From Naegleria gruberi (Eukaryota), in assembly GCA_000004985.1 (NCBI GenBank), contig GG738872.1: DNA of 64,000 nt. One strand, written 5' to 3'. The notes under the pieces were generated by a model. The model searched no databases and was not told where the DNA came from. It saw only the letters and a list, made by a program, of their open reading frames with translations. The first letter of the stretch is position 1; the number at the start of each line of letters is the position of its first letter. The translations under genes and the position numbers were made by a program. Positions 1 through 33,681 of the stretch are shown in pieces.

Positions 1-1
1 G

Positions 2-547: not shown

Positions 548-549
548 AT

Positions 550-6414: not shown

Positions 6415-6595
6415 TCTCTTGTAAATATAACCAAATAAACCTAGGACTTATTTATTAATGTTATAATATTGAATTATTTGAAGGATTACAATTTCCTTGT
6501 TTTACCTTCTTTTTAAAAGTTACCGTTACACAATTTTGATTGTTATTTAAAATTTTAATGTGATCAAATAGCAATTAAATCAAAAAAAAGGCAGA

Positions 6596-7615: not shown

Positions 7616-7658
7616 TAAGCACGTTTGGAACTTGTTTAAATAAATTTATAACTTATAT

Positions 7659-8934
7659 CTAAAAGTAAGGTGCAACAACAGTTTTCTTTGGTTTTTGAAT
7701 TGCATGACTGAAATGAACAGATGTCAAATTAGGTTCCCCTGCCTGAACTTTGAAATAATAATAAGCAAGTGCACCAATAATAAAAATGTAACAGCACCCA
7801 GACACAACAAGACCAAAGCCAACTGTAGTGACAACTATCACTACAATGGTTGTAGGTGTATCAATACTAGTGTTTGTTTTTCCTTGAGATTCAGATAATA
7901 TTTCCATTGTCTCCCAATTCAAAGAGTGTATGAAAATCTTGTCTTTGGATTTGATAACTTTCAATCTCTTATTTGATGAAACCCAATTAAGCTCCTTCTT
8001 AAGTTGAATCTCTTCATTATTCAAGTCAAGTTTCTTCACTTGATTGTCAAGGGTGGTAATGAACAAGTTGTTCCGGGAACATTGCATGGAAGACACCGAA
8101 TTTCCAATTTCATAAACAGTACTCCTTCCACCTTCCTTATTAATTGCTGTCAATACCCAACTCGCCTCCATTCTTGCTGTCTTTGCCAAGAGGTACAGGT
8201 TTCCAGAGCAAAATTTCATTTTCATGTCATCAGCTCTCTCAGTCCAAGAATAGAAGATACTTGAGCCACCAGTCTCTGCTTCCACTTTCTTAATAATATT
8301 ATTATCTTTTTTATAATCAAAGAGGTCGATAAGATTTCAAGCAATAACTTACCTCGATCAGCCATGTAAATATCATTTGTCTTTGAATCAACAGTAATTG
8401 ATGAAATATGATTCATATTCAAGTCCATTCTCACAATATTAGAAATATTTCTTGTTGTCATGTCCAGCACTTTAATATTGTTACCAGATTCTATCCATAT
8501 TAAATTTCCTTTCCACATGTTCAATTCTCTAATGTTCCCAACTGCTTCAAGGTTGTTTGGGCAATTAGCATCATCTCCCTTACCCACCTTTGAATAATAA
8601 ATAAGGACAGCAAATATTTGCTATTACATACCATTAATGTGCTGATCATTCCATTCGTTAACTCCACTTTCCTTATTGTATTATTCTCAACAAAGAATAG
8701 GACATTATTCTCTTCATCAAAATAAGAATTGTAAGCCTCTATTGTTAATTCATAACTGTTCTCCTCTCCATCACCACTGCCAACAACAGTACACTGTTCA
8801 TGTGCTGCTTTCGAGATGTTCCAATTTGATTTGGAGCTCACAATAACCGCTATGACTATCAAGCTGACTAACAAAATTATATAACCAGCAACCAATTTTC
8901 TATTTCCTATACACAAATTGTTCTTCCTCATCAT
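7659..8934 (-). CDS. 3-exon membrane protein with YWTD/NHL-like beta-propeller repeats (exons 8934-8632, 8587-8353, 8287-7659; about 388 aa)
   Basis: Two GT-AG introns reconstructed (GTATGT donor at 8631 and GTAAGT donor at 8352 on the minus strand). Exon lengths keep the frame. N-terminal hydrophobic signal/anchor, C-terminal TM segment (TTIVVIVVTTVGFGLVVSGCCYIFIIGALAYYYF). Repeat-like NDIYMAD and NLYLLA motifs. Confidence 0.55.
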
Positions 8935-9265
8935 GAATGATACGTTCGAACGTCTTTGCTTTCGAGGGTTCCTCTACTACAGTTTTTTATTTGGAATGCT
9001 ATCATTCAAAAGAGTGCGCTCTGGTTTGCAATTACAACCCCACGAAACACCTTAAATATTTTTGGCACCCTTAGATTTGGAAAAATAAAATTCTTTACCA
9101 ACCCTGACAAATGGTTGTAAAGAGCAGCGAATAATAGATGATTTCTTAATTATCTTTACATGGATTGTTATCATCATTATCTTATACAATGGTTGCTTAA
9201 GTATCAATCTTGTAATAATGAACATACATCGAGGAAGATATTCATATTATCACAGCTCCGAAAAA

Positions 9266-12200: not shown

Positions 12201-12381
12201 TCAAAATGATGACCAAGCACGTAAGATTGTAAACAACATTAAGAATAATGTCAATTATCTTGCCACCTCAGATCGTCTCAATGTTATTGGTTACTCCTCC
12301 AAAGAACCAATCATGAAAAAACAATTCAAATTGGACAAGCAACAATTTACCGTTTTACAATCTAAAGTTTTCTCTCAATAA
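9266..12381 (+). CDS. VPS35L: VPS35L (retriever complex subunit), 3 exons: 9266-9282, 9408-9780, 9829-12381 (about 980 aa)
   Basis: Spliced N-terminus MPEFEW|KPKLRNYKAEN parallels the VPS35L N-terminus (…FPW…RNYKAE). Conserved HPL/DPL (PL) motifs in the N-terminal tail. Strong blocks such as KSLKIVIKCSKIL, QFYPSMFVL and LDTFGKLVY match VPS35L as I recall it from memory. Introns have GTAGGT and GTATGT donors and AG acceptors, and exon lengths sum to a multiple of 3. Confidence 0.75.
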
Positions 12382-12800
12382 TAAATTTATTCTATTTTAA
12401 CAAATTTCTAGAAATAATATTTAATAATAATAGAAATAATAAATAATAATATTAAAAATTAACAAATCTGATCCATTGATCCTGAATAGATAATATTATC
12501 TCCAATAATTAACATTTAATTTACTAGAATACTATCTACCATTTAAACACCTCAATAAATTTTCTAAAACCAAACTCAAAGGTCCCACAATGGAAAACTG
12601 ATCGTTCCTTGATTACTCCTACACTTCTCCAATCAGCCAATCAATAAAACAGTTCGGATTGTAAAAACATCCGTCAGTTGTTTTTTAACCTTCAAGCAAT
12701 GTCAAACTCACTATCACAGCAGCGATGTTTCACTTTGCGCAACAGAATTTTTTCACACCTTCTTTTGATACTCAGCCTCTTGAATTGACCATTAAAAAAA

Positions 12801-13667
12801 ATGAAGTCAATTATCTGTGTCACACTTTTGCTCATTGCATCAGTTTGTTTCGTCAGTGCTGCTCAACACTGTCTCAGCAATCAATTCACTGCTTCCATCT
12901 TGTTGATGGATCCAAAGAAGGTTTGTGTTTGTACTTTCGAATAATATTTTTTATTCTAATTTCTAATGCGATTTTCTTTCATACAACAATCACTTGTGCT
13001 TTTTAACAATATGATAATTTTTACAATATCGATTCCATGATATTCGAAATATTTGCAATATAACAACAAATTTTAAACTATACGATCAATCACATTTGAA
13101 TAATAATCTAAATAATTCATCTATCACAACAAAAAACAGCGTTACGACGACTTCCACAAGGTCTACTTTGATGAATATTCCCAACAACAAAGAATTGATA
13201 TTCACGAATTGGATCCTAATGATAAGCACGTTTCCATCTTTTTGAAGCACAACATTGCCAAGATGTACATTTATGATCAAACTGCCAACACTTGTACTTC
13301 TCACCCACTCGAAGGTAAATTGCCAGCCTTCTGTTTGGCTAACAATGCTACCAAGGTTGATCAAATCACTATTGGTGGTTCCTTGAAGGCTGATGTCTGG
13401 GAAGAAAAGGTCTTTGGTTGGACTTCTCGTTTGATCTTGGCTGCTGATTCCTACATTCCAATTAACATCTTGTCCAAGGGTGGTCATTTGAATAATCATA
13501 TTTTCGAAGAGTGGTTGGACGTAAAGAACACCATTGAATCACCAGCTGTTTTCCAATTGCCAACTGCTTGTTTGAATGTTCAAGATAACAAGAGAAATGC
13601 TGCTGCTCCAGAAGCCTTGTTGAATCAAGTTGCCAGACTCAATGCTCCATTCACTAAGAAGCTCTAA
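12801..13667 (+). CDS. secreted hypothetical protein, 2 exons (12801-12920, 13140-13667; about 215 aa)
   Basis: Exon 1 encodes a signal peptide (MKSIICVTLLLIASVCFVSA) and ends at a GTTTGT donor. The acceptor AG at 13138-13139 restores the frame into ORF 13209-13667. No family assigned. Confidence 0.5.
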
Positions 13668-13939
13668 ATGATAATGATTGAATGTTAATCATTTTAAATA
13701 AAGCTTTTTGAAAGAGTATTTTCAATTTGAAGTATATATGTATTGATTGTTAATTTATGAAATTCTTAATGCTTAAAAGTGAGAAAATTATTGAATTGTA
13801 AATAGATGACAATACAGCATTTGATCATCACAAAAATAAGTATTTAAAAAATTCAAACAAATAATTTTTAAAAATTTAAAAAAACAAGTTGAAGGAGAAC
13901 CTTCCGATATCAAAATTATCATCAACATAATAGTAAAAT

Positions 13940-14467
13940 ATGAGTGAATTAAAAGATGCTCTCGATTTAAATGTCATGGTACGATATCTGAGATTTTCAA
14001 CATCTTTGGGAAGCTTTGATGTCGAACTCTATACACACCATGTTCCTATGGGTTGTAAATACTTTTCCGATCTTGCTTTAAGTGGATACTACAATGATAC
14101 ATTGATTCATACCATACAACCTAACCATGTTTTTATTGGTGGAGATCCAACAAATACAGGAAGAGGAGGAAAGGAATGGAATGGATATTTACAGGAAATT
14201 CCTACAAGTAAATTGAAACATACAGGAGCTGGAATTATTGGACTTTGTGAGAATTCACAATTTTACGTGACATTGTCTCCTTCACCTTGGAATGATGGAA
14301 AATATTTACCAATTGGAAGAATTTGTAAAAATATGAAAACGATAAAGAGTATTTCACTTGTTCCTGTTGGAGGAGGAAGTAATGGTGAAGAGGATTCGAC
14401 AACACCACTTGAGGAAATAATGATTTATTCCATTCAAGAAATTGAATCTATTGCAGAAGAAGAATAA
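13940..14467 (+). CDS. cyclophilin-type peptidyl-prolyl cis-trans isomerase (PPIL3/CWC27-like)
   Basis: FSTSLGSFDVELYTHHVPMGCKYFSDLALSGYYNDTLIHTIQPNHVFIGGDPTNTGRGG aligns with the cyclophilin core (…GDIDIEL…P.aC.NF..L…YY…FHR…gF..QgGDPTGTGrGG). Confidence 0.75.
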   Translation: MSELKDALDLNVMVRYLRFSTSLGSFDVELYTHHVPMGCKYFSDLALSGYYNDTLIHTIQPNHVFIGGDPTNTGRGGKEWNGYLQEIPTSKLKHTGAGIIGLCENSQFYVTLSPSPWNDGKYLPIGRICKNMKTIKSISLVPVGGGSNGEEDSTTPLEEIMIYSIQEIESIAEEE

Positions 14468-14612
14468 ATTTAATTTTTGAAATTTAATTTCAAATTAAAT
14501 TCATTCTTTAATAATTAATATTAATATTAGCATAGTCATAGTACCTTATTTAAGGAGGATTAATTTTAAATATTATGAAATAATTAATTAATATTTCACT
14601 ATTTAAAAAAAA

Positions 14613-15578
14613 ATGACTCGATTCATTATCAATCTACCTGATGAAATTATTTTTGAAATACTCATGATGGTTTCGAATTCAATTCCTTCCATGATGAATT
14701 TAGGAATGTCTTGTTCATCATTTTGGGAATTAATAACTCAACGAGGAACACTATTATGGACTAGTGTATTGGAAAATATGGCTGATCAAGATCCGAGCCG
14801 TTTTAAAAGGAAAACAATTTCCCTGTTGTATGTACCAATGTTGCCAACAGACAAGTGCCAGAAACTATTAAGAGTTATTAGACACCAATATCGATTTGAA
14901 CTCAAAAAGAAAATTGTCTCAGCAGCAAAACAACTTGAATATCAAGATAAGGTTCTCTTTGTGGAAACTGTAAAATTTAATGATGAGATTACTATGAAAT
15001 TGGTTAATTCAGTCATTGGATCTATAAAATCCTATTATTCACCAGAAAATTTCGTTAACAAATTTGGTGGGTCTATGGGGGTATTATGTGATTTTCTAAG
15101 GCAGCACCAAATGGCAAATTTTACAATAGGAGAAGTAATAGATCATTTCTATAAAAAAAAGAATGCACACAAACATTTAAATCCAAAAGTCAGAGATGAA
15201 ATTTCAGAATTGTACAAAGAATTTACTATGAAACATGTTGCACAAGGTATATACAGTGTTTTACCACTGTTGGGATTTGCAAAGAATGCAGATGATGCTC
15301 TCCTTCTATTAACGTTTATTTATCTTGAATGTCCAATATATGAAACACTAAATCCTAATAATACTTATTTTCCAATGGAAACATTTACAGGATTCGAGTT
15401 GGATCAGAAGAAAGTTTTATTGGGAAAACCTTTTTTGGATATTATTCAAAATCATCTGACAAAAGTTTCTTTATGCTCAAAAAAATTGGATAATATTACA
15501 ACTATTCAACAAGCCATCTCTCAATTCAATGATCAAGTTTATGGACCAACCAAAGTACTTCACTTTGAAATTTTGTAA
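14613..15578 (+). CDS. F-box-like protein (321 aa)
   Basis: N-terminal LPDEIIFEILMMV F-box signature. Remainder has no recognised domain. Confidence 0.5.
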   Translation: MTRFIINLPDEIIFEILMMVSNSIPSMMNLGMSCSSFWELITQRGTLLWTSVLENMADQDPSRFKRKTISLLYVPMLPTDKCQKLLRVIRHQYRFELKKKIVSAAKQLEYQDKVLFVETVKFNDEITMKLVNSVIGSIKSYYSPENFVNKFGGSMGVLCDFLRQHQMANFTIGEVIDHFYKKKNAHKHLNPKVRDEISELYKEFTMKHVAQGIYSVLPLLGFAKNADDALLLLTFIYLECPIYETLNPNNTYFPMETFTGFELDQKKVLLGKPFLDIIQNHLTKVSLCSKKLDNITTIQQAISQFNDQVYGPTKVLHFEIL

Positions 15579-15922
15579 ACTTTGTAACCGTATTTCAAAA
15601 ATGTTCCTCAACGAATTTTCCTTTTCACCAAGCACCAAAAACAAGCTGTTTCGTATTAAGCATCTAACGGTTATTTATCATACCTATCACTACAATAAAA
15701 ATCTTCCACAGTTGTCAAGTTGGCTTTTTTGAGCGCTCGCATGAAAAAGCTCAATTATAAAACATTCAAAAAAATAGGAAAACTTCAAATTTATCCACCA
15801 TCACATTGTTTTGAAAGATTTTCATCATTACTGTTAATTTGGTAGGTTGAAAGATTTAGGATAACGTGTTGATTATAACTTTTATCCGTGTGATGATCAT
15901 AAAATCATTTTAATTTCATAAA

Positions 15923-17009
15923 ATGTTTAGTAGTATAAAGATGACATCGGAAAGTGTAGTAGACTCAAAGATTGAGCATCATCATAATTGTAAAGATCAT
16001 CATCACCATCATGGTGATGATTGTTGCAAAAGGTCCAATGATCATAAAGAGTGCCATCACGATAATACCAATACAAAGCATATTCATCATCAAAATCCAA
16101 AAAGGAAGAGAAATGGATGTGCTATTTGTGGGTTAATGCAAATTATGAATCCATTCCCTGCAACTGGTAATGTTGATGATTATGAACCAACTAAATTTGA
16201 GGAAGCAATGAATGTATTGACTCATTTGTTGCCAATAGCCATTTTTACATACTTTTCGAATAGAATGTTTGTGGAAAATTTGGTCAACTCATCAGAAGAA
16301 ATGTTTGTGGCATTGGTTTTTTGTATTGGGATGTGTATTTTGTTTCTAGTTTCGAGTACTTATCATTTTGTTTGTCTAATTTATGGAAAAAATCACCCAA
16401 ATGTTGATTTTTTCAGATCTATGGATTATGCCACTATTTATGTGAGTATTTTCTAGTATTATTCTTTACTAATTTATGGAATATTTTGTCAAGATTTTCA
16501 TTGGTGCCTCCTATACACCATGGTTGGCTCTGGTTCCACTTGGAGAGGATGGAACGTTTGGAAAAGGTTTTGCAGTTTTGGTGTGGAGTATTGCAGTTAT
16601 TGGACTCATCAAATCTTACAATACCAAATTCTTACCTCAAATTGAAAGTGTTGTCTTGTTGAATTTGATGGGTTGGGTTGCTATTATAATTATTCCACCA
16701 GCTCTATTTACACACGTTCCAATTGAGGCTTTTATTTTCTTATTGATTGGAGGTATTTTCTATTCGGGAGGATGTTTCATTCTCAAATATGGAGATGGTA
16801 GAATACCAGCAGCTCATGCCATTTGGCACATGTTAGTGAACTGTGGAGTGTTATTCCATTTCCTAGTAATGGAAGTTTATTTGATTAAATTGGATACACA
16901 TTTTAGACCTGGTGATGAAATGCCACTCATGGTCTATGAACAAGTGATTGAGGCATGGAATTCGAATAGAACTTGGCACTTCCCAGCCTTTAATGTTTTG
17001 TATAGATAA
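15923..17009 (+). CDS. PAQR/hemolysin-III family 7-TM protein with a His/Cys-rich N-terminal extension; 2 exons (15923-16441, 16494-17009; 344 aa)
   Basis: PAQR signature motifs: E-x2-N-x3-H (EEAMNVLTH), S-x3-H (SSTYH), D-Y-x2-I-x3-I-x-G-S-x2-P spanning the splice junction (MDYATIY|IFIGASYTPW), and C-terminal HxxxH (HAIWH). GTGAGT donor at 16442, acceptor AG at 16492-16493, frame preserved. N-terminus is HHHNCKDHHHHHGDDCCKRSNDHKECHHD. Confidence 0.75.
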
Positions 17010-17157
17010 ATTAAGTATTTTGGTACCTAAATTTGTTGGAAGACATTCCAAGGAAAGTAGTCTAATATTTCATTCTCAAGGCCATTCATATCATTAATTC
17101 TCAATATTGTAAACATTGAACTAACATTTAAAAAAGTTCATACAAGATTATAAAAAA

Positions 17158-18067
17158 ATGCAACACAACTATCCTTTCCGCAAGTCGCTTAGAATTTTCC
17201 TCCTCTCCCTCATTTTAATCTTCATTGGTGTTATAGTTGTGAAAAGTTCAACTGTGTGGATAAGCGTAGTGACGAAATTCTACAATTCCTCCGTTATGAA
17301 ACTGATAGGAATTTGTGGTGTTTGGTACGTTAATGTTCCTATGTAAATAATTATTCTTTACTTCCATTTGTTAAATATATTTAATGATTGAAATTAAAAG
17401 CTCAATTCCTGAAGGAAGAAATCCATCACAAATTTACGATAATTTCATAGTGAATAGCATGGAACAGAATATAAATGTACATTACTTTGCATTGAGTGAG
17501 AATCAGGCCCCATTGGTAACAACGAATACTGATCAACAATTACAAGTGATAATCGATCAGGTGGTGAGTAAGCAAACTATAATTGTCATTTCGAGTGAAT
17601 CCTACACGACGAATATTCTCTTTTCTATCACTGACAAGTACTCAATAGTGAAGAGTAACTTCCTTGCCAATATTCAATATATTTTGGTTAATTCAAAATT
17701 TAAGGCAACTTTCAAGTTTAAGGATGAAAGTCTTTCTTCTCAGATAACTGTTAAATACTATTGTGATGATTTGTGTGGAGCTAATACATTTATTTCAACT
17801 AAGGATGCTTATATTTGGAATAGTGGAGGATCAACTATGGAATTGGAAATGAGACAAAGAATTGGAGCTAATTATACTACATACATTGGGTGTGACAAAT
17901 CTTCCAGTTTTACATTTATGAATCCAATTAATGAGTGTGAAAATGGTGACACTAATTTAATCATTACTGTAGTGTTATCTGTAGTTTTAGGTAGTTGTTG
18001 TTTGGCATGCCTTTGTACGTGCTTATTTTCTATCCTAGGTTGTTTAATTAAGTTGGCCCTTAATTAA
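17158..18067 (+). CDS. hypothetical membrane protein, probably 2 exons (17158-17324, 17401-18067)
   Basis: N-terminal signal/TM (LRIFLLSLILIFIGVIVV) and C-terminal Cys-rich TM (VVLSVVLGSCCLACLCTCLF). Candidate GTACGT donor at 17325 and AG acceptor at 17399-17400 keep the frame. Splice not otherwise supported. Confidence 0.4.
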
Positions 18068-18127
18068 TAAAAGGAATCAAATTACGGATATGGATTATCA
18101 GAACATTATTTTCATAATGAATGTGCT

Positions 18128-18198
18128 CGTCTCGTGGTGTAATGGTAGCATAGTGGACTTTGAATCCATTGACGGAGGTTCGATTCCTCCCGAGACGG
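18128..18198 (+). tRNA. tRNA-Gln (anticodon TTG)
   Basis: Cloverleaf readable by eye: acceptor CGTCTCG/CGAGACG, anticodon stem GTGGA/TCCAT with loop CTTTGAA (anticodon TTG), T-arm GGAGG-TTCGATT-CCTCC. 71 nt. Confidence 0.8.
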
Positions 18199-18261
18199 TA
18201 ACGTGGCGAGCCATAAGTTTTACATCTTAGGTATTTACGTTTATCTCCTCAAAAATTCCAA

Positions 18262-18412
18262 ACTTGCGATTGAGAGGATTCTATTCTTTTCCTGCTTGAT
18301 GAATTACAATAATTACTACATGAATTTCTTGGTATTTAAGGTAGTTCTAGTTGTAGATTTATAATATTAAATTCCATTCAAGCTCACTTCTCTGCAGAAT
18401 ATTTCTTGCTTC
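18262..18412. repeat. left arm of a diverged inverted repeat (partner at 25086-25258 in opposite orientation)
   Basis: 33-bp perfect match (18376-18408 = reverse complement of 25091-25123: attcaagctcacttctctgcagaatatttcttg). Flanking about 120 bp align at roughly 75-80% with indels (shared blocks gattgagagg, cttgatgaat, gtttaaggt, gatttataatattaaat). Confidence 0.6.
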
Positions 18413-18972
18413 ACACTCAATGATGAAATTGGAGAGAAAGGAGATTTATCTCCTCAATCTTATTATAAACTTACGCTTAAGTGGGGTAATTATTAAGGTG
18501 TTGGCAATTTGGCTTGAGAAGATTGAAGGACTTGAACATGGTTGTCAATTCTTATTAGATACCAGCTCTGCTCAACCAACCTTGCACATTTCTTTCACAA
18601 ATGTTGTTGCTGCTGTTAATCCTCAAAATGGGCAAATAATGAGAACAACAACTTTCAATTTAGGCTTTAATCTTTCTCATCAATCATTTTTGACTGTGGG
18701 AAGAGATTTCTTGGCGATTCCACTTGCCAATTCAGTTGTTATTCTTGACAAACTTACTTTCAGATTCATTTGGTTGGAAGAAAGGGAAATATATTTCATA
18801 ATACTCAATGTCTTCATGTTCAAACTTGATATCAAGAGATACCAATTCATTCTTCTTGACATGTAGGAATTATGACGGATCATACACAGCATTAAGATAT
18901 GACGTTTCAAACACCAAAGTTAATACCAATTCAATGCTTGGCATTCCACGTGTTTGTTCCAATTAAATTCCT

Positions 18973-19015
18973 GTAGATGTTTATGATTCACATTTTGGTA
19001 ATGATGCTACGATCT
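18973..19015 (+). repeat. 5S rRNA upstream-element/5S-start-like fragment abutting the assembly gap
   Basis: gtagatgtttatgattcacattttggtaatgatgctacgatct closely matches the sequence immediately upstream of, and running into, the 5S gene at 40977-41030 (gagatgtttatgattcacattttgagtaaatgattggctacggcc). Confidence 0.5.
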
Positions 19016-19065
19016 NNNNNNNNNNNNNNNNNNNNNNNNNNNNNNNNNNNNNNNNNNNNNNNNNN
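19016..19065. other. assembly gap (50 N)
   Basis: Run of N. Preceded by a 5S-like repeat fragment, consistent with a repeat-induced gap. Confidence 0.95.
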
Positions 19066-19268
19066 TTCACAAGCATTCCAACCTTCAGATTGTCTTAAAT
19101 GTTTACTTCATTATGGTATAATTCTTTTTTAAAAGAATAGCCACCTCTGAAATGGAAACTGTTAGGAACTTATACTGAACTTTGTTAATTACTGGGCTGT
19201 CTAATTACTAGTAAATTATAATACGTTTTTTGTAATCTATCTAGTAGTTTGTTAAATTCACGAAAAAA

Positions 19269-20732
19269 ATGGCATCCACACTTCCCTCGCGTCTTGATCA
19301 TTTGCCGCATGAGATTCTGTTCACCATCTTTCAATATGGCTTGGATCCGTACACATTATTCAAGCAAATTATTACCTTTCGACATGTAAATAAAACTTTT
19401 TACGAAATGACCAATGATCAAGACTTTTACAAGGTGCTTTTTGCTGATTTGAGACCTAAAGATACAACATTTGATTATTTTCCTACACATGCCTTCATCG
19501 ATCGATTATTGTTCCGAACCCATAGGGACACTTTTAAAGATTGGACTTGTGAGGAATCATGCAAACCTGCCTATGAAACTCTTAACGGAGAGTTGATTAG
19601 CTATGAATATGAAGATGATGGCAAGGAAAATTTATTTGAAAAGTTTTCAGAGTGGTTGAATCAGGCCTATTCAAATTGTGACAATGTTCTATTGAAAATG
19701 TTGATTCAACTGTGTTTGGGAAGAGAGATGATTTCTCATTTGGGAATTAGCAAAGTTGGAGTGTTGATTGAATTGTTTTTTGAAAAGTTGTTGCAACCTG
19801 CTATTGAGTTGGTCAATTCATGGAATGAAACACCGAAAGAAATGGAATGGAGAGAGGATTTGGTGTTTAATATGAATTTATTGCAAGTGATTGGAACAGA
19901 GAGTTTATTTGGAGAGGATATTGCAGTCTGTTGGAGTGAACTAGATGGAATTGCTTCGTGTATTCCAAGAAAATACTTGTTATTCATTGCTGAAAAGTTT
20001 AGAGACATTGAATTGTTGATGAATGATTCGACTAGAACATGCATGGTTACTCAAATCATGAAAATATTGAGAGATTGTGGAATTAAAGTTGAAAGAATGA
20101 GATTTAGTGATATTGGCATGCATGTGAATTATCAGAGAACTGATGCAACGGATAGAATGATCCCAAAAATAGCAAAGAGCTTTTACTTGCAACATTTAGC
20201 AGTTTGGATTAATAGTCCATCATTGCTGGAGTGGTGTTTAACTGTTGGTATTACATCAGATACCAATCTTAAACATCTTTCCAATAATCCGTATTTGGAT
20301 ATTTCACTTCAAGCTCATGTGAATACATACATTCACGATGCATGTGGCTTGACAGCTCTTCATTATGCTGTTCATAGTGGAAATGTAGAAATATCAAACT
20401 TGCTGATCAAGAAATATTTGGCAAACCCATTTGTGGAATCAAGAATTTCGCATTGGGGAAACCTTACACCATGCATACTTGCACAACTTGGTGAATCTGA
20501 TTCAACAATACAAATGATTTTCAAATCACTTGAAGAAAAATATGGAGATATCAAAGTAACTTTCGATAGAGACGATGAAATTGCCAAGGATGTTGAACAA
20601 TCAAATGATTCTCACAAACTTTCTCTTGAGAAAATGCGCGCAGATGTTTGGTATGAATGTGGAGATGATTATTCTTCTTCTGTTAGAGAGAGAAGGAAGA
20701 AACAGTTTATAATAATGAATTCAAAATGGTAG
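19269..20732 (+). CDS. F-box / ankyrin-repeat protein (487 aa)
   Basis: N-terminal LPHEILFTIF F-box signature. Ankyrin repeat consensus near the C-terminus (GLTALHYAVHSGNVEISNLLIKK). Confidence 0.6.
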   Translation: MASTLPSRLDHLPHEILFTIFQYGLDPYTLFKQIITFRHVNKTFYEMTNDQDFYKVLFADLRPKDTTFDYFPTHAFIDRLLFRTHRDTFKDWTCEESCKPAYETLNGELISYEYEDDGKENLFEKFSEWLNQAYSNCDNVLLKMLIQLCLGREMISHLGISKVGVLIELFFEKLLQPAIELVNSWNETPKEMEWREDLVFNMNLLQVIGTESLFGEDIAVCWSELDGIASCIPRKYLLFIAEKFRDIELLMNDSTRTCMVTQIMKILRDCGIKVERMRFSDIGMHVNYQRTDATDRMIPKIAKSFYLQHLAVWINSPSLLEWCLTVGITSDTNLKHLSNNPYLDISLQAHVNTYIHDACGLTALHYAVHSGNVEISNLLIKKYLANPFVESRISHWGNLTPCILAQLGESDSTIQMIFKSLEEKYGDIKVTFDRDDEIAKDVEQSNDSHKLSLEKMRADVWYECGDDYSSSVRERRKKQFIIMNSKW

Positions 20733-22033
20733 AGACTCTAAACGGTTTCGATTATGAATTTGAGGAAGTTATGGAAGATATTTCAGATGAGTCAGACAAT
20801 GAATATGGATTGTCTTACGAATGGATCAAAAGTCAAGTTCAAGACCAAAGTTCTTTGAAACGTAAGAGAAATTCAAATCATGATTACTACCTGCATAATG
20901 AGAGCTTGAGAAAAATGAGAAAACCTATTGAAGAATTCGAGAAGGTTCAATGGAATTCTTCTCAAGTTGAATTTCTACATGAAACTGATCAAGCCAGTCG
21001 GAGTGATGAATATGATTATAAGCATTGGCCCTTTATTAAAATTATGAAAAGAAAACCAAACTCCATTGAGGGAAATGAAGAGGAACGCGAGGAAGGACAT
21101 ACCGCGGATGAAACAGAGGGAAAAGATGAAAATGAAGAAGAAATAGACGAAAAAGAAGAAGAAAATGAAACTCAACAAGACGAAAAAGAAGTGCTGAATA
21201 TTGGTCCTGAGTTCATTTTGAGAAAAGATTTAACAGTTCCCAAGGAAAAAATGGATTTACTTATCAATGAAGTTCTAAGCAGTTACAAAAGTGGATCATT
21301 CATCATACCGAACGCTAAAATGATGATTCAACAAGCTGCTGAGAACATTGTCTCGTATAATTTCACAATTTCTCAAGATATCTCTCAATTTTGTGGTAGA
21401 GATTATGTTACTAGAAATGATGTAGCCTTGGCTGGTTATTTAGTTTCTTCCAAAACAAACCCTAAAATCCATCATTTCTATTTTGGCAACAGAACGAAAA
21501 CACTCAAATCACACAGAGATGAATTTGTTGAAAATCTGAATATTAGCTCAAAACATATAACAGATCAACTTGGTAAATTAATCCATGACGAATCAATTTT
21601 GAATGCAATAGTGGAAATAATTTCTGAACAATTTGAAAATACCTATTTAACTGAAATACAAGACGAGAAGATTGATCCAAATTATGATGGACTAAGTAGT
21701 GACTCTTCTGAAGGTACAAATTATAGTGAAGATAGTATGCTTTCTAATGTGTGTTTTGAGGAGACTTGTTATGGATTTGAGGTTAATAATTTTGATTTAT
21801 GTTATTCATCCATAAGTGCAAAAGACTTACTCAATGAGAGAAAGGCATGTATCATTGTTGAAAATGATGACTATTTCACAGTACATGAAACTGAAGGACG
21901 TACTGTTTATGAGAATGAGGAAGTAGATTTGAGAACTCGAGTGATTTACACAACTGATAGAGACGAAGCTCTCAATTGGATTGATAATGCTTCAGGTTTT
22001 CACTTCCCTCCAGATGAGGAATATTTAGATTGA
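20726..22033 (+). CDS. acidic hypothetical protein (435 aa) with a histone-fold-like segment; start ATG overlaps the stop of the upstream F-box gene (ATGGTAG)
   Basis: Glu-rich N-terminal half. The segment KMDLLINEVLSSYKSGSFIIPNAKMMIQQAAENIVSYNFTISQDISQFCGRDYVTRNDVALAGYL has helix-loop-helix spacing reminiscent of a histone fold. The 7-nt overlap with ORF 19269-20732 may instead reflect a frameshift within one gene. Confidence 0.4.
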   Translation: MVETLNGFDYEFEEVMEDISDESDNEYGLSYEWIKSQVQDQSSLKRKRNSNHDYYLHNESLRKMRKPIEEFEKVQWNSSQVEFLHETDQASRSDEYDYKHWPFIKIMKRKPNSIEGNEEEREEGHTADETEGKDENEEEIDEKEEENETQQDEKEVLNIGPEFILRKDLTVPKEKMDLLINEVLSSYKSGSFIIPNAKMMIQQAAENIVSYNFTISQDISQFCGRDYVTRNDVALAGYLVSSKTNPKIHHFYFGNRTKTLKSHRDEFVENLNISSKHITDQLGKLIHDESILNAIVEIISEQFENTYLTEIQDEKIDPNYDGLSSDSSEGTNYSEDSMLSNVCFEETCYGFEVNNFDLCYSSISAKDLLNERKACIIVENDDYFTVHETEGRTVYENEEVDLRTRVIYTTDRDEALNWIDNASGFHFPPDEEYLD

Positions 22034-22340
22034 TCATCAAGATTTTTGTTAATTGTTTCAATTTACTGATTAATTTGGCTCACGAATGTTGGTGTCATTA
22101 ATTGCCAGATCGGTTAGAGACACTCCTTGAGGCTGTAATTGAGCACTTGTGGCCAATCCACCATCTCCACTATGTAACTATGTACAGGTGTTCCAGCACC
22201 ACTGTTGAGATGTCCATTAGGTTGGACCTTTGAGATTTTTCTATTTTGATAATATGTCATCGTTGGAATTGACAACAACAACCTTAGGACTTCTTAATTG
22301 TGAATTAAAGTTTTCATCATATTCAAGTTAGAGATTATTA

Positions 22341-23834
22341 TTACCACTCTAAATCTTCGCTGTCATCAATTTCCTCTTCTTCACTTTCTTCTTCATCATC
22401 ATTTTCCTCTTCTGATGACGAAGGTTCACTGCTCTTTGAGATAGTGATTTGTTCCTTAAACTTGGACTTTACTTTCTGAATGGATTTTCTAGAGCACGAA
22501 CTATTGACCAGTATAAGCTCCATAATCTTGTTGATACCATTTTCCAGAATATACTCAATGCCCTGTTCGCTCACGTTATTGGAGCCAAGATTTAGAAATT
22601 TCAAAGTACTTCTCAGGTTAACACTTTCGAGAATGGAGATGAGACCCTCATCTGAAATACTATTACCGTACAGACTTAAATGTTCCAATTTAGTGAGGGT
22701 TTTTGAATTTGAAATATAGCAACATCCAACAGTAGATATTCCAGACATGTCCAAGCTCAGATTTGTTAAATTTGCAAGATTACAGTTGGCAATTTCCAAA
22801 CATCCCTCGTCTCCAATAGTTGAAGATATTTTCAGAGTGTGAAGATTGGGATGAATTGCACCTTGAAAGTATTGAGAGCATATTTCCTCTGAAAATGATT
22901 TAACCCAACCCAAATTCAAATATGAAAGAGTTTTGATTTTTTGAATCATTATCAAGCTTTCGCCAGAGATAGCTTGATTTTTAAGTTTTAGTTTCTCTAG
23001 CTGATGAAATTTGGCAAAATCTAATATACAGTCATCAATTCTGTTATAACTAAGATCCAAAGATTTCAAATTGAACATTACATTTCTCTTAATGGGTTGA
23101 AAATGTCTTATCAAGTTTTGGGAGAGATTGAGTGTTTCTATTGATATACCCTTTGTTATCAAAAAATCGAATAAATATTTCATTGCACCTTCACTAATTA
23201 AATTAATCGACAGATCCAGTTCCACCAATGAAATTTCAGAAGGAATGTTATAACACAACAACTGACACAATGAGTTATCCAAATTACACGAAGAAAGTAC
23301 AAGTTTTTTCATGTTGGAAAATATTGTTGCATTTCTAATCCAGGGAAGTAATTTGAAATCTTTGGTGGATTGTTTTGTAATTACCAATGATTGAATATTA
23401 ATTTTAGTAGAATTGTACATGCTTGGATTTTTGTACGATTCGAAACTATATTCCATATCATTGTGTAAATTGTCCTCCTGCTTTTGTTTAGTCCCAAATT
23501 CAAGGAATTTATATTGCCAATTTTCCTCAATGGTAACATGAAGAGTTGTCCTGCAAGACTCCTCATAAAATTGTTTTGAAACCCGAATCATATTTTCCAT
23601 AATTACTTCCCAATCAAGAAATGATAATATAATTCCAATCATTTCATCGGGAAGAGAAAATGTTTCTTCATGATCAGAATCTTTAGTCTTTTTCTTCTTG
23701 TTTGGTGAAAATTTTACATCAACTAGAGATAATTCGGAATCCCTGATCATCATTCTAGAATCACAAAGATGATTTAAATCGTCCACCTCCTCCAGTAGTG
23801 ATCGTTTCATTTTTTTTAAAATTTTAAATTCCAA
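22341..23834 (-). CDS. F-box / leucine-rich-repeat protein with acidic C-terminal tail (497 aa)
   Basis: LPDEMIGIILSFL F-box signature. Multiple LRRs (LDLSYNRIDD, LSLYGNSISDEGL, LNLGSNNVSEQGI). C-terminal ENDDEEESEEEEIDDSED. Confidence 0.65.
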   Translation of the reverse strand: MEFKILKKMKRSLLEEVDDLNHLCDSRMMIRDSELSLVDVKFSPNKKKKTKDSDHEETFSLPDEMIGIILSFLDWEVIMENMIRVSKQFYEESCRTTLHVTIEENWQYKFLEFGTKQKQEDNLHNDMEYSFESYKNPSMYNSTKINIQSLVITKQSTKDFKLLPWIRNATIFSNMKKLVLSSCNLDNSLCQLLCYNIPSEISLVELDLSINLISEGAMKYLFDFLITKGISIETLNLSQNLIRHFQPIKRNVMFNLKSLDLSYNRIDDCILDFAKFHQLEKLKLKNQAISGESLIMIQKIKTLSYLNLGWVKSFSEEICSQYFQGAIHPNLHTLKISSTIGDEGCLEIANCNLANLTNLSLDMSGISTVGCCYISNSKTLTKLEHLSLYGNSISDEGLISILESVNLRSTLKFLNLGSNNVSEQGIEYILENGINKIMELILVNSSCSRKSIQKVKSKFKEQITISKSSEPSSSEEENDDEEESEEEEIDDSEDLEW

Positions 23835-23963
23835 AAATTAAGGGATTTAGAATTGGTTTTTGCGCCAGAGCTTAATATGTTAAAATTTATGGAGAGCTTG
23901 ACTAACTCATGTGGAATATATGGTATCTAACTCTAGTTACATCATACAATCTTTCGAATTTAT

Positions 23964-24968
23964 TTAATCGTCTGCTGAATATTCAAAGAAGATACATTTT
24001 CCACTATTGGTAATAAACACCACAGCCAATGAGCCAATAACGCCAACATAACACTCCTTATATTCAGCAACAATTGGACATTCTTTCTTAATGAAAGCAA
24101 GCAATTCTTCTAATTTGGAGATTTCTTCGAGGCACTCCTCTCCTCCAATCACTTTTTTCAAAAAGTCAAACAAGTTGTTGTCAAATTCCTGCTTGACATC
24201 CTCAAATGTTCTGTCCAAATAAATTTGTGGATAGAATGAATCTCTTTCACAATTTGTAAAATACTCAAATTTGTCCTTAATATTACTCTCCAAGGAAATA
24301 CTCTGGTATTGGTAATAGTAATTGTTTTGAGGAATTGAACTGGCCACAACGCCAATGATTTTCTTCATCAAATCTGAAAATAATTCTCCAATTTTCTCAT
24401 CATGTTTGATCATTCTTTTCAAAAAGTGAATTCCAAACACACTGGCATTGAAATTAAAATCGAATGTTCTTGCACATCCACCACTGCCATAATTGAGACC
24501 ATTCATTCCATGATATGTAACAGTTTTGTAACCGTTAGAAAATTCTTGTGGAATGATATTTTGAGCAAAAAATCTTCTCATGTCAATCTTCTCGGTCAAT
24601 TGATAGAGAAGGGAGTGCTTTTCAGCAAGTACTTTCCACAATCTCAAGTTTGTACTTGGAGTTGCTTCAATTTGCCAATTTAACATCTGGTACCATTCTT
24701 TGCAAACCAAGGAACAGTTTACCAAAGTTTCGAATTGCCATGGCTCGTTTAAACCATCAAACAGATTTATAAAAATTTCAATCCACAATTCTGGGAGGAT
24801 TAGTTTCATTTTTTTAACTTTATCTTTGCTAACTTTTTTAGCACGAATCATTGCTATGTTAAATACTTTTGTCCAAGTCCCAATTAGAACTTTTACAATG
24901 GTTTCTGTAGCTCCCAATAAACTTTCTAAGAATAAAATGTAACCTTGTATTAAACTGGGCAATGTCAA
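23964..24968 (-). CDS. F-box-like protein (334 aa)
   Basis: ILPELWIEIFINLF F-box-like signature followed by CSLVCKEWYQML. No other domain recognised. Confidence 0.5.
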   Translation of the reverse strand: MTLPSLIQGYILFLESLLGATETIVKVLIGTWTKVFNIAMIRAKKVSKDKVKKMKLILPELWIEIFINLFDGLNEPWQFETLVNCSLVCKEWYQMLNWQIEATPSTNLRLWKVLAEKHSLLYQLTEKIDMRRFFAQNIIPQEFSNGYKTVTYHGMNGLNYGSGGCARTFDFNFNASVFGIHFLKRMIKHDEKIGELFSDLMKKIIGVVASSIPQNNYYYQYQSISLESNIKDKFEYFTNCERDSFYPQIYLDRTFEDVKQEFDNNLFDFLKKVIGGEECLEEISKLEELLAFIKKECPIVAEYKECYVGVIGSLAVVFITNSGKCIFFEYSADD

Positions 24969-25085
24969 ACCTAATTAAGTGTCTTAAACTTGTATACCCA
25001 GGTCAGCACTCTTTTACAATTGAAATTCATCGCTCAACTCCACTTGTTTAGATTTGGAGATGGATCATGGACCACCTCTTCTGAA

Positions 25086-25258
25086 TTGAACAAGAAATAT
25101 TCTGCAGAGAAGTGAGCTTGAATTGATATGAGTTGGTTTTGGATTTAATATTTTAAATCCAAAACTATTTAAAGAAGCACCTTAAACATCAAGAAATACG
25201 ATAGAAGTTAGTTTTCAATAATTTTGCTATTATTCATCAAGCAACCCCTCTCAATCTC
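25086..25258. repeat. right arm of the diverged inverted repeat (partner 18262-18412)
   Basis: See left arm. The orientation is inverted. No tRNA copy accompanies this arm. Confidence 0.6.
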
Positions 25259-25840
25259 AATACCAAGTGAAGAGGTACATCTTTTTGAATAGTATAATCA
25301 TTGATTGTTCTACCGTCTTCCTTAGTGAAATTTATTTATGAACTCTATCTACAATTTTCTAAACTACTTGAAATAGAACGTCTTACAAGAGCTGTTCTAA
25401 TGTTTCAGGAATGAGAACAAAAAGTGCCTTTCGTAAGATTGAAACTTGTACCCATTAGAAACAAAAGGAGTACAATTTCCAATACAGTGTTTGCTGTAGT
25501 TCTTTACAGTCCATATAAAGATCAAAAAGGAATAGATAGGAAAATTGAAAGAATCATTTAGTCCTACTTTCAACATTGGAAATTTATTCATTCCAATGGA
25601 TTCCACGCCATGGTGCTCAATCCAACCATTGAAGTTCTTTCATTCTGTTCTTGTTCAATTCTCCGCACTGAATAACAAAGACCAAATGTACAATGTCCAA
25701 AATCTGTGGCTACTCTTTTTTTGGAAAATCATTAATCTTCAATCATACCAAAAAAATCAATATACTAATCAAACTATTCTTTTCAAATCTTTAAAACTGG
25801 AACATTGTTTCACTTCTCAAACACAATCAAAAAACAAAAA

Positions 25841-26245
25841 ATGAAAAGATTCGTTTCAATCTTATTGATTGCATTGACTTTGGCAATTCTTGCACTTTCC
25901 TTCACTTCAGGAGTTTCTGCTGAAGAATCAGCTGCCTCAACACTTTCCTTGTATATTAGAAAGAATAATAACAAGAAGAGAAATCTCAAGAGATTCAGAC
26001 TCAAGAAGAGAAAGAACAATAGAAAGCTCAACAAGTACATTGACACCTATGGAAGAAAGAGAAGAGGATGGAAGAGATATGGAAAGAAGAGAATTATCAG
26101 AAAGAAGATTGATGTTTATGGAAAGAAGAGAAGATTTAACAAGAAGAGAAGAATCGACACCTACAGAAAGAAGAATAGAAAGAATAGAAAGAACAGAAGA
26201 GGTGGAAAGAAGAATAAGAAAGTTGACCTTTACAAGCGTAAATAA
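25841..26245 (+). CDS. secreted, extremely basic repeat protein (signal peptide plus about 107-aa mature region with about 55% Lys/Arg)
   Basis: MKRFVSILLIALTLAILALSFTSGVSA signal peptide. The mature part consists of reiterated (I/V)D(T/V/L)Y(G/R/K)(K/R)KRR-type units: IDTYGRKRR, IDVYGKKRR, IDTYRKKNR, VDLYKRK. Opposite-strand and other-frame ORFs here are low-complexity artefacts. Confidence 0.5.
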   Translation: MKRFVSILLIALTLAILALSFTSGVSAEESAASTLSLYIRKNNNKKRNLKRFRLKKRKNNRKLNKYIDTYGRKRRGWKRYGKKRIIRKKIDVYGKKRRFNKKRRIDTYRKKNRKNRKNRRGGKKNKKVDLYKRK

Positions 26246-26452
26246 TTGAAAGATTGAATCAATTATTCCTTAAAGCACAAATTTTGAATCAATTTTGCTC
26301 TTAAATATAAAATATAACTTGTGAGTCTCTCGACCGAATTCAATCTTTTTTTCCTTCATCATTTCATGAGCTCATTCAAATCTTGTGGCAACTTGGAAAA
26401 CTGTTTTTCACTTCTTTTTAAAAAAAGCACTTCAAATAAAACTTCGAAAAAA

Positions 26453-27929
26453 ATGTCTGATCATCAAACACCTAGCGTTTCACCAGCAACAACAACATCG
26501 GGGGAAATTGTTCATGAGCAACAACCAGCTGCTACTGTTGCTGCTGTAGAAAATACAACAACAATTCAAGAACCAACTTCAAGTGAAGTAAATTTAGTGT
26601 CAACATCGGAAACAAGTAATAGTGGGAATGATGATAAAAAGAGAAAGAATCCACCTTCCGAATCATCAAATGACAAGAAGAAGAGAAAGGAAAATTATAA
26701 GAAGGGAGGTAAAGGAACAGCTTCTGCCAAGAGAGATAATGATTGGGGTCCAAGAGAACCTAAAGAAAAAAAGGAAGGAGAAGAAAAATTCCAAAAAAGA
26801 AGAGTTGCAATTTTCATTGGGTATTTGGGAACAAATTATAATGGTTCACAAACTTCGTATGTGTTTAAAATTATTATATCTAATATTGAAATTATTTAGA
26901 AATTTTACCAATCCTAATGTCAAGACTGTAGAAGAAACTGTGTTTAAAGCTCTTTGTCAAGCAGGAGGTGTTTCTGGTGACAATAGTACTGACATGAATA
27001 AGGTTCATTTTCACAGAAGTTCAAGAACTGACAAGGGTGTTCATGCTGCCTCAAATGTTTTGGAAATGAAACTTTTAATGAAACCAGGATTGGAAGAAGA
27101 AATGAGAAAACTTTTACCTGAGGATATTGTTTTTTATGGATACAAAAAGGTATCTAAATCATTCAATGCTAAGGAACATTGTACAGCTCGTACCTATGAA
27201 TATTTATTACCTGCTTTTGCATTATCACCAGATCCAAAAGCAGCAACATGGTTTGGACAAATTAATATTGACAAGATTACCAAGGAGGATGTGGAAAGTG
27301 AAAATTTGAATGATATTTACAATTATGATCCAACAGATGAACAAATTGAAAAGGCTAATCGTGTTTTGAAAAACTTTGTTGGAACCAATAGTTTCCATAA
27401 TTATACTCAACTCACAAAAGCCAAGCCAAACTCTTTCAATAGACACATTACCAAGTTTGAATGTTCTAAAGCTTTTGAAATTGATGGAATGAAAGTTGTC
27501 AAGCTCACTGTCACTGGTTCTTCATTCATTTATAACCAAATCAGAAAAATGGTTGGTTTCATGATTGCTGTCATGCGTGGTTCCCTCAATGAAAGTGATT
27601 TCAGTACCTCTGTTGATAAGGAAGTTACTGCCAACGTTCCACTTGCTCCAGCCAATGGATTATTATTATGTGAACAAGAATTCAAGAGATATAATGCTAA
27701 ACAAGGAGCCAAAGTTAATGGTCACGTCACTCCTTCCGATTATTACAAGGAGATGGAAGAATTCAAGAAGAGAATCTATTCCCACATGTTGAAACTTGAA
27801 AAGGAAGAAGGTATCATTGCTAAATTCCTTTTACATTCTAGGGGGTGGAGATTATCGAAGGGATCTAAAGGAGAACCAATTAACAATGTCGAGGAACCAG
27901 TATTAGAATCAATCGAAGAAGATGAATAA
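26453..27929 (+). CDS. PUS1: tRNA pseudouridine synthase, TruA/PUS1 family; 2 exons (26453-26856, 26900-27929)
   Basis: RRVAIFIGYLGTNYNGSQ and the catalytic-Asp motif RTDKGVHA. Further matches to PUS1: ARTYEYLLP and HNYT...MVGFMIAVMRG. Intron GTATGT at 26857 to AG at 26898-26899 restores the frame (…GSQTS|NFTNPNVKTVEE…). Confidence 0.85.
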
Positions 27930-28009
27930 ATAGCTTAGGTTTATTGAATGATTGATAATTAAAACAATCATTAATAATATTTAGAAAACTATACACCTCG
28001 GAAGTAAAA

Positions 28010-28468
28010 TTACCATTCAATTTGGAAAGTAGTAACTCTTGGCTTGTCGTTCAAAGTTCTAACCAACTTTTCAACAATTGGCTTCGATGGAGGAGCTTCT
28101 TGGAGTTCCTTATCAGTATATTGGTTAGAAACAAAGTAACCAACTTGAGAGAACAATTGATTATTGTAGGAAACCTTCAACAAGAGGACAGTACAATCCA
28201 ACAAGTCGGAAGCAGAAATCTTTTCAACATTTGGAGCAGGAGCAGTGACAACAAACTTGTTTGTACCAACCTTGACTGGACCAACGGAAACAGATTCCAA
28301 AACTTGATCTTCATCGGCAGAAGCACTGCTACCAACATAGACAAGTTCCAAATCCAAATCAGATGAGATTTCTTCCATACATTCGAGGGTAACATCTAAT
28401 TCAATATTATCGGTAAATTTGGTTGGGTTGTTCTTAACTTCAACGTTGGTGAGTTTAACCTTGGTCAT
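28010..28468 (-). CDS. ASF1: histone chaperone ASF1 (152 aa)
   Basis: MTKVKLTNVEVKNNPTKFTDNIELDVTLECMEEISSDLDLELVYVGSSASADEDQVLESVSVGPVKVGTNKFVVTAP… aligns along its length with the ASF1 core (…NNPAKF.DPYEFEITFEC…L.YVGS…D.D…LD…VGPV.VG.NKF.F.A…). Confidence 0.9.
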   Translation of the reverse strand: MTKVKLTNVEVKNNPTKFTDNIELDVTLECMEEISSDLDLELVYVGSSASADEDQVLESVSVGPVKVGTNKFVVTAPAPNVEKISASDLLDCTVLLLKVSYNNQLFSQVGYFVSNQYTDKELQEAPPSKPIVEKLVRTLNDKPRVTTFQIEW

Positions 28469-28817
28469 TTTAATCTAGAGTTGTTGTGTGTATTTTTTTT
28501 AGAGAGTGGTTTGATTAAAATCCAATTTATTTAAATTTTTTAAAAAGAAAACAACCGTTAAAGAAAATTGGAGGGAATTTTTATTTGTGGCGCCAACCTG
28601 ATTCCGTTACAACACAGGTTCCGAAATTATTTGACAACAACGTAAACTCTTGTAATTTCATTGATTGAATCAATAACTCTTCCTAATATTAATCCAAACA
28701 ATAAATTTCCAAGTTATAATTGCAAATACGATAACAATTTGCTTCTCCAATTACATTGTAATTTGGCGCCATTTTATTTTTGTAGTTTGAATATTTTGCA
28801 CCAACAAACACAAAGAA

Positions 28818-33620: not shown

Positions 33621-33681
33621 GCCGACATAGCTCAGTTGGGAGAGCGTAAGACTGAAGATCTTAAGGTCCCTGGTGTCGGCA
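33621..33681 (+). pseudogene. tRNA-Phe(GAA)-like sequence lacking the T-arm (probable tRNA pseudogene or assembly deletion)
   Basis: GCCGACATAGCTCAGTTGGGAGAGCGTAAGACTGAAGATCTTAAGGTC-CCTGG-TGTCGGCA. Acceptor, D-arm, anticodon arm (GAA) and variable loop are intact, and the 3' acceptor strand TGTCGGC pairs with the 5' end. The expected ~12 nt (TTCGATxCCAGG) of T-loop and 3' T-stem are absent. Confidence 0.5.

Follow-up and report, generated by a model that had tools for sequence, protein, structure and literature searches.

Several described systems place genes between inverted arms. Composite, foldback and terminal-inverted-repeat DNA transposons carry them between their ends, and low-copy inverted repeats, paired a few kilobases apart with a short perfect tract, mediate inversions by non-allelic homologous recombination. 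Where one arm lies beside a transfer RNA (tRNA) gene, retroelements also come to mind: Dictyostelium TRE3 and TRE5 are non-LTR (long terminal repeat) elements targeted to tRNA genes, and a flanking direct repeat is typical of target-primed reverse transcription. Here we describe a locus of Naegleria gruberi that recalls each of these. In a stretch of 64,000 nucleotides of contig GG738872.1 (assembly GCA_000004985.1), which we call the window, two diverged arms in opposite orientation frame a block of genes with F-box, ankyrin and leucine-rich repeat (LRR) sequences, and one arm lies just downstream of a gene for tRNA-Gln(TTG). A first reading of the letters (the original prediction) had proposed that the block could be a composite or foldback-type mobile element, the remnant of a tRNA-targeted retroelement, or an inversion-prone segmental duplication that is expanding the F-box family. 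We find that both arms are the tails of ubiquitin genes.

The comparison that fits best is with the ubiquitin gene family itself, whose birth-and-death evolution, pseudogenes included, is a textbook example (Nei, Rogozin and Piontkivska 2000, as cited in PMC3123226). The arms resemble the pseudogenes of such families in that truncated, disabled coding sequence is joined to its own 3' flank in a genome with many ubiquitin genes; in N. gruberi an identical di-ubiquitin protein appears under at least four accessions, on 6 contigs. In contrast to the usual picture, one tail is represented here by two fragments, inverted relative to each other at a distance of 6.7 kb, which frame unrelated genes by accident.

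Two ubiquitin-gene tails in opposite orientation

A repeat search of the window returned core arms of 36 nt, at 18373-18408 and 25091-25126, which are 97% complementary and share a perfect run of 33 nt. Gapped alignment extends them to 18264-18413 against 25260-25087 (about 150 and 174 bp); it contains 135 matches and 20 mismatches, and about 11 indels account for its 57 gap columns. Identity is 87% over aligned columns and 64% when gaps are counted. The arms find each other at E=4e-12 when compared by blastn inside the window, a similarity that is far beyond chance, and neither blastn nor an nhmmer profile built from both arms finds another such pair in the 64 kb. Inward past the arms, homology is at chance level (p=0.58) and does not reach the second copy of the 13-mer discussed below. 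The arms are reverse complements of each other, not direct repeats, and the inverted match that had first drawn attention to the locus is real in length, position and orientation. Their inverted relation depends on the scaffolding across a gap of 50 N at 19016-19065, also correctly noted at the outset. Because the genes HlyIII and Pus1 keep the order and strand that they have in the sister species, the orientation of the scaffold across this gap, and hence the inversion of the arms, is supported.

Comparison of the window with itself gives the source of the sequence. A segment abutting the right arm (25247-25321, minus strand) matches the 228-bp tandem repeat at 42832-43287, which is a di-ubiquitin gene; against 42982-43056 of that gene, the right fragment has 82.7% nucleotide identity (blastn E=3e-14). 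Canonical ubiquitin residues 51-75 align with 25320-25246 on the minus strand at 76% identity (tblastn E=4e-9), and the right arm begins, at its outer end, with 15 nt that code for LRLRG. The left arm opens in the same way, with TTG CGA TTG AGA GGA, and keeps these five ubiquitin codons; after an in-frame indel of 12 nt it is collinear with the right arm through GCT TGA TGA and the flank that follows. Both arms derive from ubiquitin: they are 5'-truncated gene tails, made up of the last codons and about 150 nt downstream.

The right copy is truncated at codon 51 and the left at about codon 71-72, the left copy (18264-18413) lies wholly inside the span of the right (25320-25087), and both tails, neither of them coding, point inward, toward the centre of the block. 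Upstream of codon 51 the right copy has stop codons and no start codon, and its similarity to ubiquitin ends abruptly, as does that of the left copy at its own truncation point; within the fragment, normally invariant sites are replaced (N60T, S65V, T66P and G76V). The right fragment thus combines significant coding similarity with disabling truncation and replacements, as we would ask of a ubiquitin pseudogene fragment. A non-mobile host sequence occurs twice in one region, the left copy being a subset of the right, which is what marks a local duplication. Because both arms are 5'-truncated ubiquitin-gene tails that point inward, they are not transposon termini.

The search for mobile-element features gave a matching picture. 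Pfam, run on all open reading frames (ORFs) of at least 80 aa from 17.3 to 26.3 kb, returned F-box-like, Ank and LRR only, with no transposase, reverse transcriptase (RT) or integrase domain between or beside the arms and no gag, pol or integrase remnants in the block. The outer ends of the arms are host ubiquitin codons of unequal extent (25 on the right, 5 on the left) and are not specific to any element. Target-site duplications had been proposed to lie immediately outside 18262 and 25258, but there is none around the whole block: the best direct repeat between 18200-18270 and 25250-25340 is a misplaced 8-mer off the boundary, and 8-mers are the commonest outcome in our direct-repeat controls. 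No third copy of the arms was found in the 64-kb window or in related loci (L001-L006, 67 kb), the core 23-mer has 0 matches in the JGI metagenomes and IMG/VR, and Rfam finds no RNA family in the arms, nor is there a convincing structure.

With composite, foldback and terminal-inverted-repeat transposons, then, the locus shares inverted arms that bracket several genes; it differs in that its arms are about 13% diverged with 11 indels, end in host coding sequence, and come without a transposase or a target-site duplication, and the proposal of a composite or foldback element is not supported. With the inverted repeats that mediate inversions it shares a pair a few kilobases apart with a short perfect tract. 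However, these arms are very short (about 150 bp, with 33 nt perfect), and the gene order outside them is collinear with that of the sister species.

The window and its relatives offered candidate sources for the tails, which were compared and rejected. The di-ubiquitin gene at 42833-43291 ends in GG-TAA, and its flanks cannot be aligned with those of the arms beyond the LRLRGG codons. The paralogous di-ubiquitin contigs L005 (from ENA) and L006 (GCA_006365155.1) also have a 3' flank that differs from the arms. Apart from its ubiquitin codons, the right arm holds an AT-rich, near-perfect palindrome of 30 nt, TTTTGGATTTAAtattTTAAATCCAAAA, at 25136-25165, half of which is taken out by a 16-nt deletion in the left arm.

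Origin of the two tails

It is probable, though well short of certain, that the arms are decayed copies of one polyubiquitin-gene 3' end with about 150 nt of its flank, and that they are ordinary relics of local duplication. The source segment would have been the 3' end of the last unit of a polyubiquitin gene (ending in LRLRGG-Ala-stop-stop), together with about 150 nt downstream. A local event at the DNA level would then have made one copy from the other, probably the shorter left copy from the right: perhaps a break immediately past the tRNA gene was repaired by a short templated insertion or an inverted duplication. The copies would afterwards have diverged to their present state of about 13% substitutions and 11 indels. 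A templated copy made in break repair would explain why the two tails lie within 7 kb of each other in opposite orientation, why the left is a subset of the right, and why the left copy has a 13-bp direct repeat beside it. If this is right, mobile-element biology is little affected, and the likeness to a transposon with F-box genes as its cargo arose by accident, from two relics of ubiquitin tails.

The direct repeat deserves attention of its own. Two exact copies of TTTATCTCCTCAA, 192 bp apart, bracket the left tail only, the first of them 41 nt downstream of tRNA-Gln and separated from the left ubiquitin codons by 11 nt of unrelated sequence. Direct repeats of at least 13 nt occur in 0.27% of 2964 window samples of the same geometry (p about 0.003). 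Together, the repeat pair and the left copy hint that a short segment was inserted about 41-54 nt past the tRNA gene. The left arm itself starts 64 nt past the end of that gene, in good agreement with the distance of about 60 bp originally given. However, the right copy has no comparable direct repeat (7-mers are the best found) and no tRNA gene nearby (none within 8 kb), so no fixed distance to a tRNA gene is common to both copies: the left lies 54-64 nt downstream of tRNA-Gln, and the right has no such neighbour. What is left of the idea of a tRNA-associated insertion concerns the left tail alone.

Several points weigh against the duplication that we propose. A source polyubiquitin gene with the 3' flank of the arms was not found among the di-ubiquitin genes compared (42833-43291, L005 and L006). 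The perfect run of 33 nt is longer than expected from the overall divergence (31 differences in 155 aligned columns; p about 0.02), and this excess could reflect constraint or gene conversion, in the form of a short conversion tract, instead of neutral decay. The candidate target-site duplication of the left copy is one 13-mer, and its p of about 0.003 is uncorrected for the three configurations tested. Willaertia has SRP19, not HlyIII, upstream of Pus1, which bears on the history of the interval considered in the next section. Finally, the count of two copies covers 64 kb and related loci, a range in which a dispersed family could be missed.

How else might two ubiquitin tails come to lie here? 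Both could be 3' ends of polyubiquitin mRNA, 5'-truncated and independently retroposed by non-LTR machinery, the left one about 54 nt past tRNA-Gln. Such an origin would account for 5' truncation points that differ and a 3' end that is common, about 150 nt after the stop and thus of the size of a 3' untranslated region; it would also account for the 13-bp direct repeat around the left copy, of the kind that target-primed reverse transcription leaves, and the 31 nt ahead of the second repeat copy are purine-rich. Retrotransposons have been reported in N. gruberi (PMC12344493). However, neither copy has a poly(A) tract (the left has a purine-rich 20-mer only), the right copy lacks both a direct repeat better than 7-mers and a nearby tRNA, and the 11 nt between the first repeat copy and the ubiquitin codons are unrelated sequence. 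In addition, two independent insertions 7 kb apart, with none elsewhere in 64 kb, would be unlikely unless the family were abundant. The likeness to retrocopies and to TRE3/TRE5 is one of arrangement: the tails are 5'-truncated with a common 3' end, and one of them lies about 54 nt past a tRNA gene with a 13-bp repeat. In contrast, poly(A) is lacking, as are RT and endonuclease ORFs, and the second copy has neither a tRNA gene nor flanking repeats. We favour a DNA-templated copy over the retroposition of a ubiquitin mRNA tail and regard the latter as unlikely, if far from negligible. A remnant of one or two tRNA-targeted LTR retroelements, with the arms as their LTRs, is extremely improbable and is already contradicted: the position of the left arm 64 nt from tRNA-Gln speaks for it, but the arms are inverted and begin with ubiquitin codons, the right one has no tRNA nearby, and nothing of gag, pol or integrase is left. 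The earlier suggestion of terminal repeats from such insertions can be set aside.

The arms could also belong to a dispersed non-autonomous family, resembling miniature inverted-repeat transposable elements (MITEs), short interspersed elements (SINEs) or foldback elements, that has captured a ubiquitin tail; the block would then be a composite element or merely the interval between two members. The palindrome in the right arm and the candidate target-site duplication of the left copy would suit such a family, and the copy number counted here is that of 64 kb and small contigs. We nevertheless hold it to be distinctly improbable. Only two copies occur in 64 kb, and none in the other Naegleria loci, the N. 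gruberi-like contigs of ENA, the JGI metagenomes or IMG/VR; neither arm is itself bounded by terminal inverted repeats, and the outer boundaries of the two differ by about 60 nt of ubiquitin coding sequence, with no transposase and no target-site duplication around the block. Very improbable, too, is that the arms or their 36-nt core have been kept by selection or gene conversion, as a cis-element with a boundary or regulatory role or as a substrate of recurrent inversion. The over-long perfect run (p about 0.02) would be explained, and the arms do flank a convergent set of genes, two on the plus strand followed by two on the minus strand. The excess is marginal, however, and the spacing is not common to the two sides: on the left the next ORF is 12 nt from the core, and on the right about 280 nt lie between the core and the next start codon. 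The core, moreover, is found nowhere else in the window, the JGI metagenomes or IMG/VR, and the arms show no RNA family or convincing structure.

The HlyIII-Pus1 interval and the genes between the arms

The whole finding lies in an interval of 9.3 kb that the sister species lack. In both N. lovaniensis (L001) and N. fowleri (L002), Pus1 comes about 75-155 bp after HlyIII, and behind it lie ASF1, a LisH protein and a ribosomal P protein; the window keeps all of these genes, with order and strand unchanged. A tblastx comparison of the window with these two loci gives matches at 16001-17003 and 26591-27875 and nothing real between them; nothing in 17010-26460 matches either locus, and neither contains a tRNA or 5S gene. 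Pus1 itself is 71% identical to that of N. lovaniensis and 69% identical to that of N. fowleri, and the two HlyIII ORFs of the window are separated by a GT..AG intron of about 50 nt. A ciliate origin of the DNA with 15-nt introns, considered because of this GT..AG, was rejected on the match of Pus1 to Naegleria and on exact N. gruberi proteins: five proteins encoded in the window agree in every letter with N. gruberi RefSeq proteins from a scaffold of 413,107 bp. Because HlyIII and Pus1 are adjacent in both sister species, the 9.3 kb (17010-26320), including tRNA-Gln and the start of a 5S gene, is lineage-specific.

Gain in N. gruberi and loss in the other lineage both fit the outgroup, because the gene upstream of Pus1 in Willaertia is a different one. 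The orphan content of the interval favours gain or rapid turnover of the 9.3 kb, and the comparison of gene orders supports the view that the region of the block was rearranged or inserted in one lineage. The proposed segmental duplication can accordingly be kept in part: the arms are duplicated DNA, and the block is absent from the HlyIII-Pus1 interval of the sister species. Its inversion-prone character is not borne out, there being no evidence of inversion and the outer gene order being collinear.

Table 1. Features in and around the block (window coordinates).
Feature	Position	Strand	Content and basis
Lineage-specific segment, 9.3 kb	17010-26320		Between HlyIII (ends 17009) and Pus1 (starts about 26321); holds the whole finding
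tRNA-Gln(TTG)	18127-18199	+	ARAGORN; Rfam tRNA, 68.8 bits
13-bp direct repeat TTTATCTCCTCAA, first copy	18240-18252	+	Exact match to 18445-18457; candidate target-site duplication of left copy
Left arm	18264-18413	+	LRLRG codons 18264-18278, in-frame 12-nt indel, TGATGA stop, about 110 nt of 3' flank; core 18373-18408; alignments, six-frame translation
ORF, 148 aa, of uncertain reality	18420-18866	+	ORF list; just inside left arm
13-bp direct repeat TTTATCTCCTCAA, second copy	18445-18457	+	Beyond arm homology
5S upstream element and first ~9 nt of 5S gene	18975-19015	+	90% identical to 40984-41024 (blastn)
Assembly gap	19016-19065		50 N
F-box-like/ankyrin gene, orphan	19269-20732	+	Pfam F-box-like, 27.5 bits; Ank, 26.8 bits
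Acidic ORF, 435 aa, orphan	20726-22033	+	No Pfam or PDB match
LRR gene	22341-23834	-	RNI/NLR-type LRRs, acidic C-terminal tail; Pfam LRR_6, LRR_4; PDB LRR proteins
F-box-like gene, 281 aa from Met at 24809	23964-24809	-	Sub-threshold Pfam F-box-like
Right arm	25087-25260	-	LRLRGVA, TGATGA stop, about 150 nt of 3' flank; core 25091-25126; alignments
Ubiquitin C-terminal fragment, pseudogene	25246-25320	-	Residues 51-75 (last 25 codons); tblastn, blastn, translation

The genes between the arms (Table 1) are arranged convergently, two on the plus strand and then two on the minus strand, and the account given of them originally is partly upheld. The F-box/ankyrin gene is above the Pfam threshold and the LRRs of the third gene are clear. 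In the F-box-like gene, however, the F-box scores 21.0 bits against a cut-off of 24.3 (its start is probably at 24809), and the LRR gene has no Pfam F-box match, its LPDEMIGIILSFL motif being recognised by eye only. The histone fold suggested for the acidic ORF finds no match, nor does anything else, in Pfam or among PDB sequences. For the F-box/ankyrin and acidic ORFs there is no homologue at E<=1e-3 in 5.8 billion proteins, including those of N. gruberi, N. fowleri and N. lovaniensis. A paralogue of the F-box-like gene, XP_002676740, lies on a different N. gruberi scaffold and is 72% identical to it; N. gruberi and N. lovaniensis also have weaker relatives, and a metagenome scan guided by this protein pair returned none. 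Just inside the left arm, the 148-aa ORF has no Pfam match, is unrelated to the F-box-like gene and has an ambiguous codon score.

The four bracketed genes are not detectably paralogous. Pairwise BLASTP gives E>=0.028 for all pairs, and between the left and right halves of the block the F-box motif alone aligns (E=0.56); the block is accordingly no tandem array of F-box genes. The expansion of an F-box family by the repeat thus finds no footing here, with four genes unrelated to each other and two of them lacking any homologue at the threshold above. We propose that the F-box genes are bystanders between two relics, which the repeat neither mobilises nor amplifies. In sum, the block lacks transposon features, is specific to its lineage and contains genes unrelated to each other.

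We also considered the block as an ancient palindromic duplication with one F-box gene in each half and rejected this, there being no similarity between the genes and no F-box-like relic past the left arm. F-box, ankyrin and LRR genes are common in giant viruses. A viral origin of the orphan genes was rejected as well: no match supports it, and GC content does not differ from that of the surroundings. On one and the same strand, the end of the F-box/ankyrin ORF and the start of the acidic ORF share 7 nt (ATGGTAG, 20726-20732), and the two may form one transcription unit or be a single gene broken up by a frameshift or by an intron that was not recognised.

Several observations concern the edges of the interval. 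Upstream of HlyIII there is no synteny between window positions 1-15900 and positions 1-8700 of the N. lovaniensis and N. fowleri loci; the genes that precede HlyIII in the sister species (a histidine kinase and a 133-aa gene) are not in the window, and HlyIII is an isolated syntenic gene at a breakpoint. Between the right arm and Pus1, an ORF at 25805-26245 has a signal-peptide-like N-terminus followed by very basic, K/R-rich imperfect repeats; it has no family match and is also present in the ENA strain contig. That contig, L003 (ENA ERZ929261, a metagenome assembly), corresponds to window positions 25858-28578 and starts just short of the right arm. N. gruberi-like DNA with 98-100% identity is found both there and in L006, a 799-bp contig in an unrelated NCBI assembly; this contig probably comes from environmental or contaminant Naegleria.

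Farther on, a probable tRNA pseudogene at 33621-33681, a tRNA-Phe(GAA)-like sequence of 61 nt, lacks most of its T-arm, scores 48 bits with Rfam and is not called by ARAGORN. Synteny with the two sister species ends exactly there, at about 33.3 kb. Because this relic stands at that end, both edges of the conserved block from Pus1 to the ribosomal P protein gene (RPLP) adjoin RNA polymerase III (Pol III) genes or their relics. As a lineage-specific island of 9 kb in N. gruberi, the HlyIII-Pus1 interval is a clear-cut case; gene fragments, Pol III genes and F-box/LRR genes that are orphans or evolve fast fill it, and it is relevant to the acquisition of novel genes in free-living Naegleria relative to N. 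fowleri.

Ubiquitin and 5S rRNA genes in N. gruberi

The 5S-like fragment in the block, which had been pointed out from the start, is genuine. It includes an upstream element that is common to both intact 5S genes of the window (41018 and 43473), and its sequence runs into the assembly gap. Rfam reports no 5S in the block at E<=10, being blind to the fragment because too little of the 5S is present.

In N. gruberi, 5S rRNA genes repeatedly lie next to ubiquitin genes or their tails, with three cases so far. At the 43-kb locus of the window (42833-43591), a 5S gene follows the di-ubiquitin gene after 183 bp in the same sense. In the ENA contig L005 (673-1403), a 5S gene lies 161 bp downstream of a di-ubiquitin gene in the opposite sense. 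At the left ubiquitin-tail relic (18264-19015), the start of a 5S gene comes about 730 bp on. Linkage of 5S rRNA genes to other multigene families is exemplified by Tetrahymena pyriformis, where 5S clusters reportedly lie between ubiquitin genes. The N. gruberi cases are alike in that a 5S sequence follows a ubiquitin gene or tail all three times; they differ in that spacing and orientation vary and the units are dispersed, not tandem.

It is tempting to connect this adjacency with the inverted pair. Ubiquitin-5S modules and their tails might be a dispersing unit in N. gruberi, copied by retroposition or templated repair preferentially next to Pol III genes, where they would seed or mark lineage-specific islands at synteny breakpoints; the conserved 36-nt core would serve a function within the module. 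We regard this as a rather improbable extension of the evidence. If it were true, the inverted pair would be two footprints of that process.

Positions 39844-43600 appear to be part of a multi-copy segment: the di-ubiquitin protein, of 152 aa, is found under several accessions, and on another scaffold the 320-aa gene (39844-40806) is matched by a paralogue at least 90% identical to it, under a neighbouring accession number. Just before this segment, a second assembly gap (38497-38624, 128 N) falls inside a 1258-aa ORF at 35494-39270, in a part that by eye resembles RCC1-type repeats.

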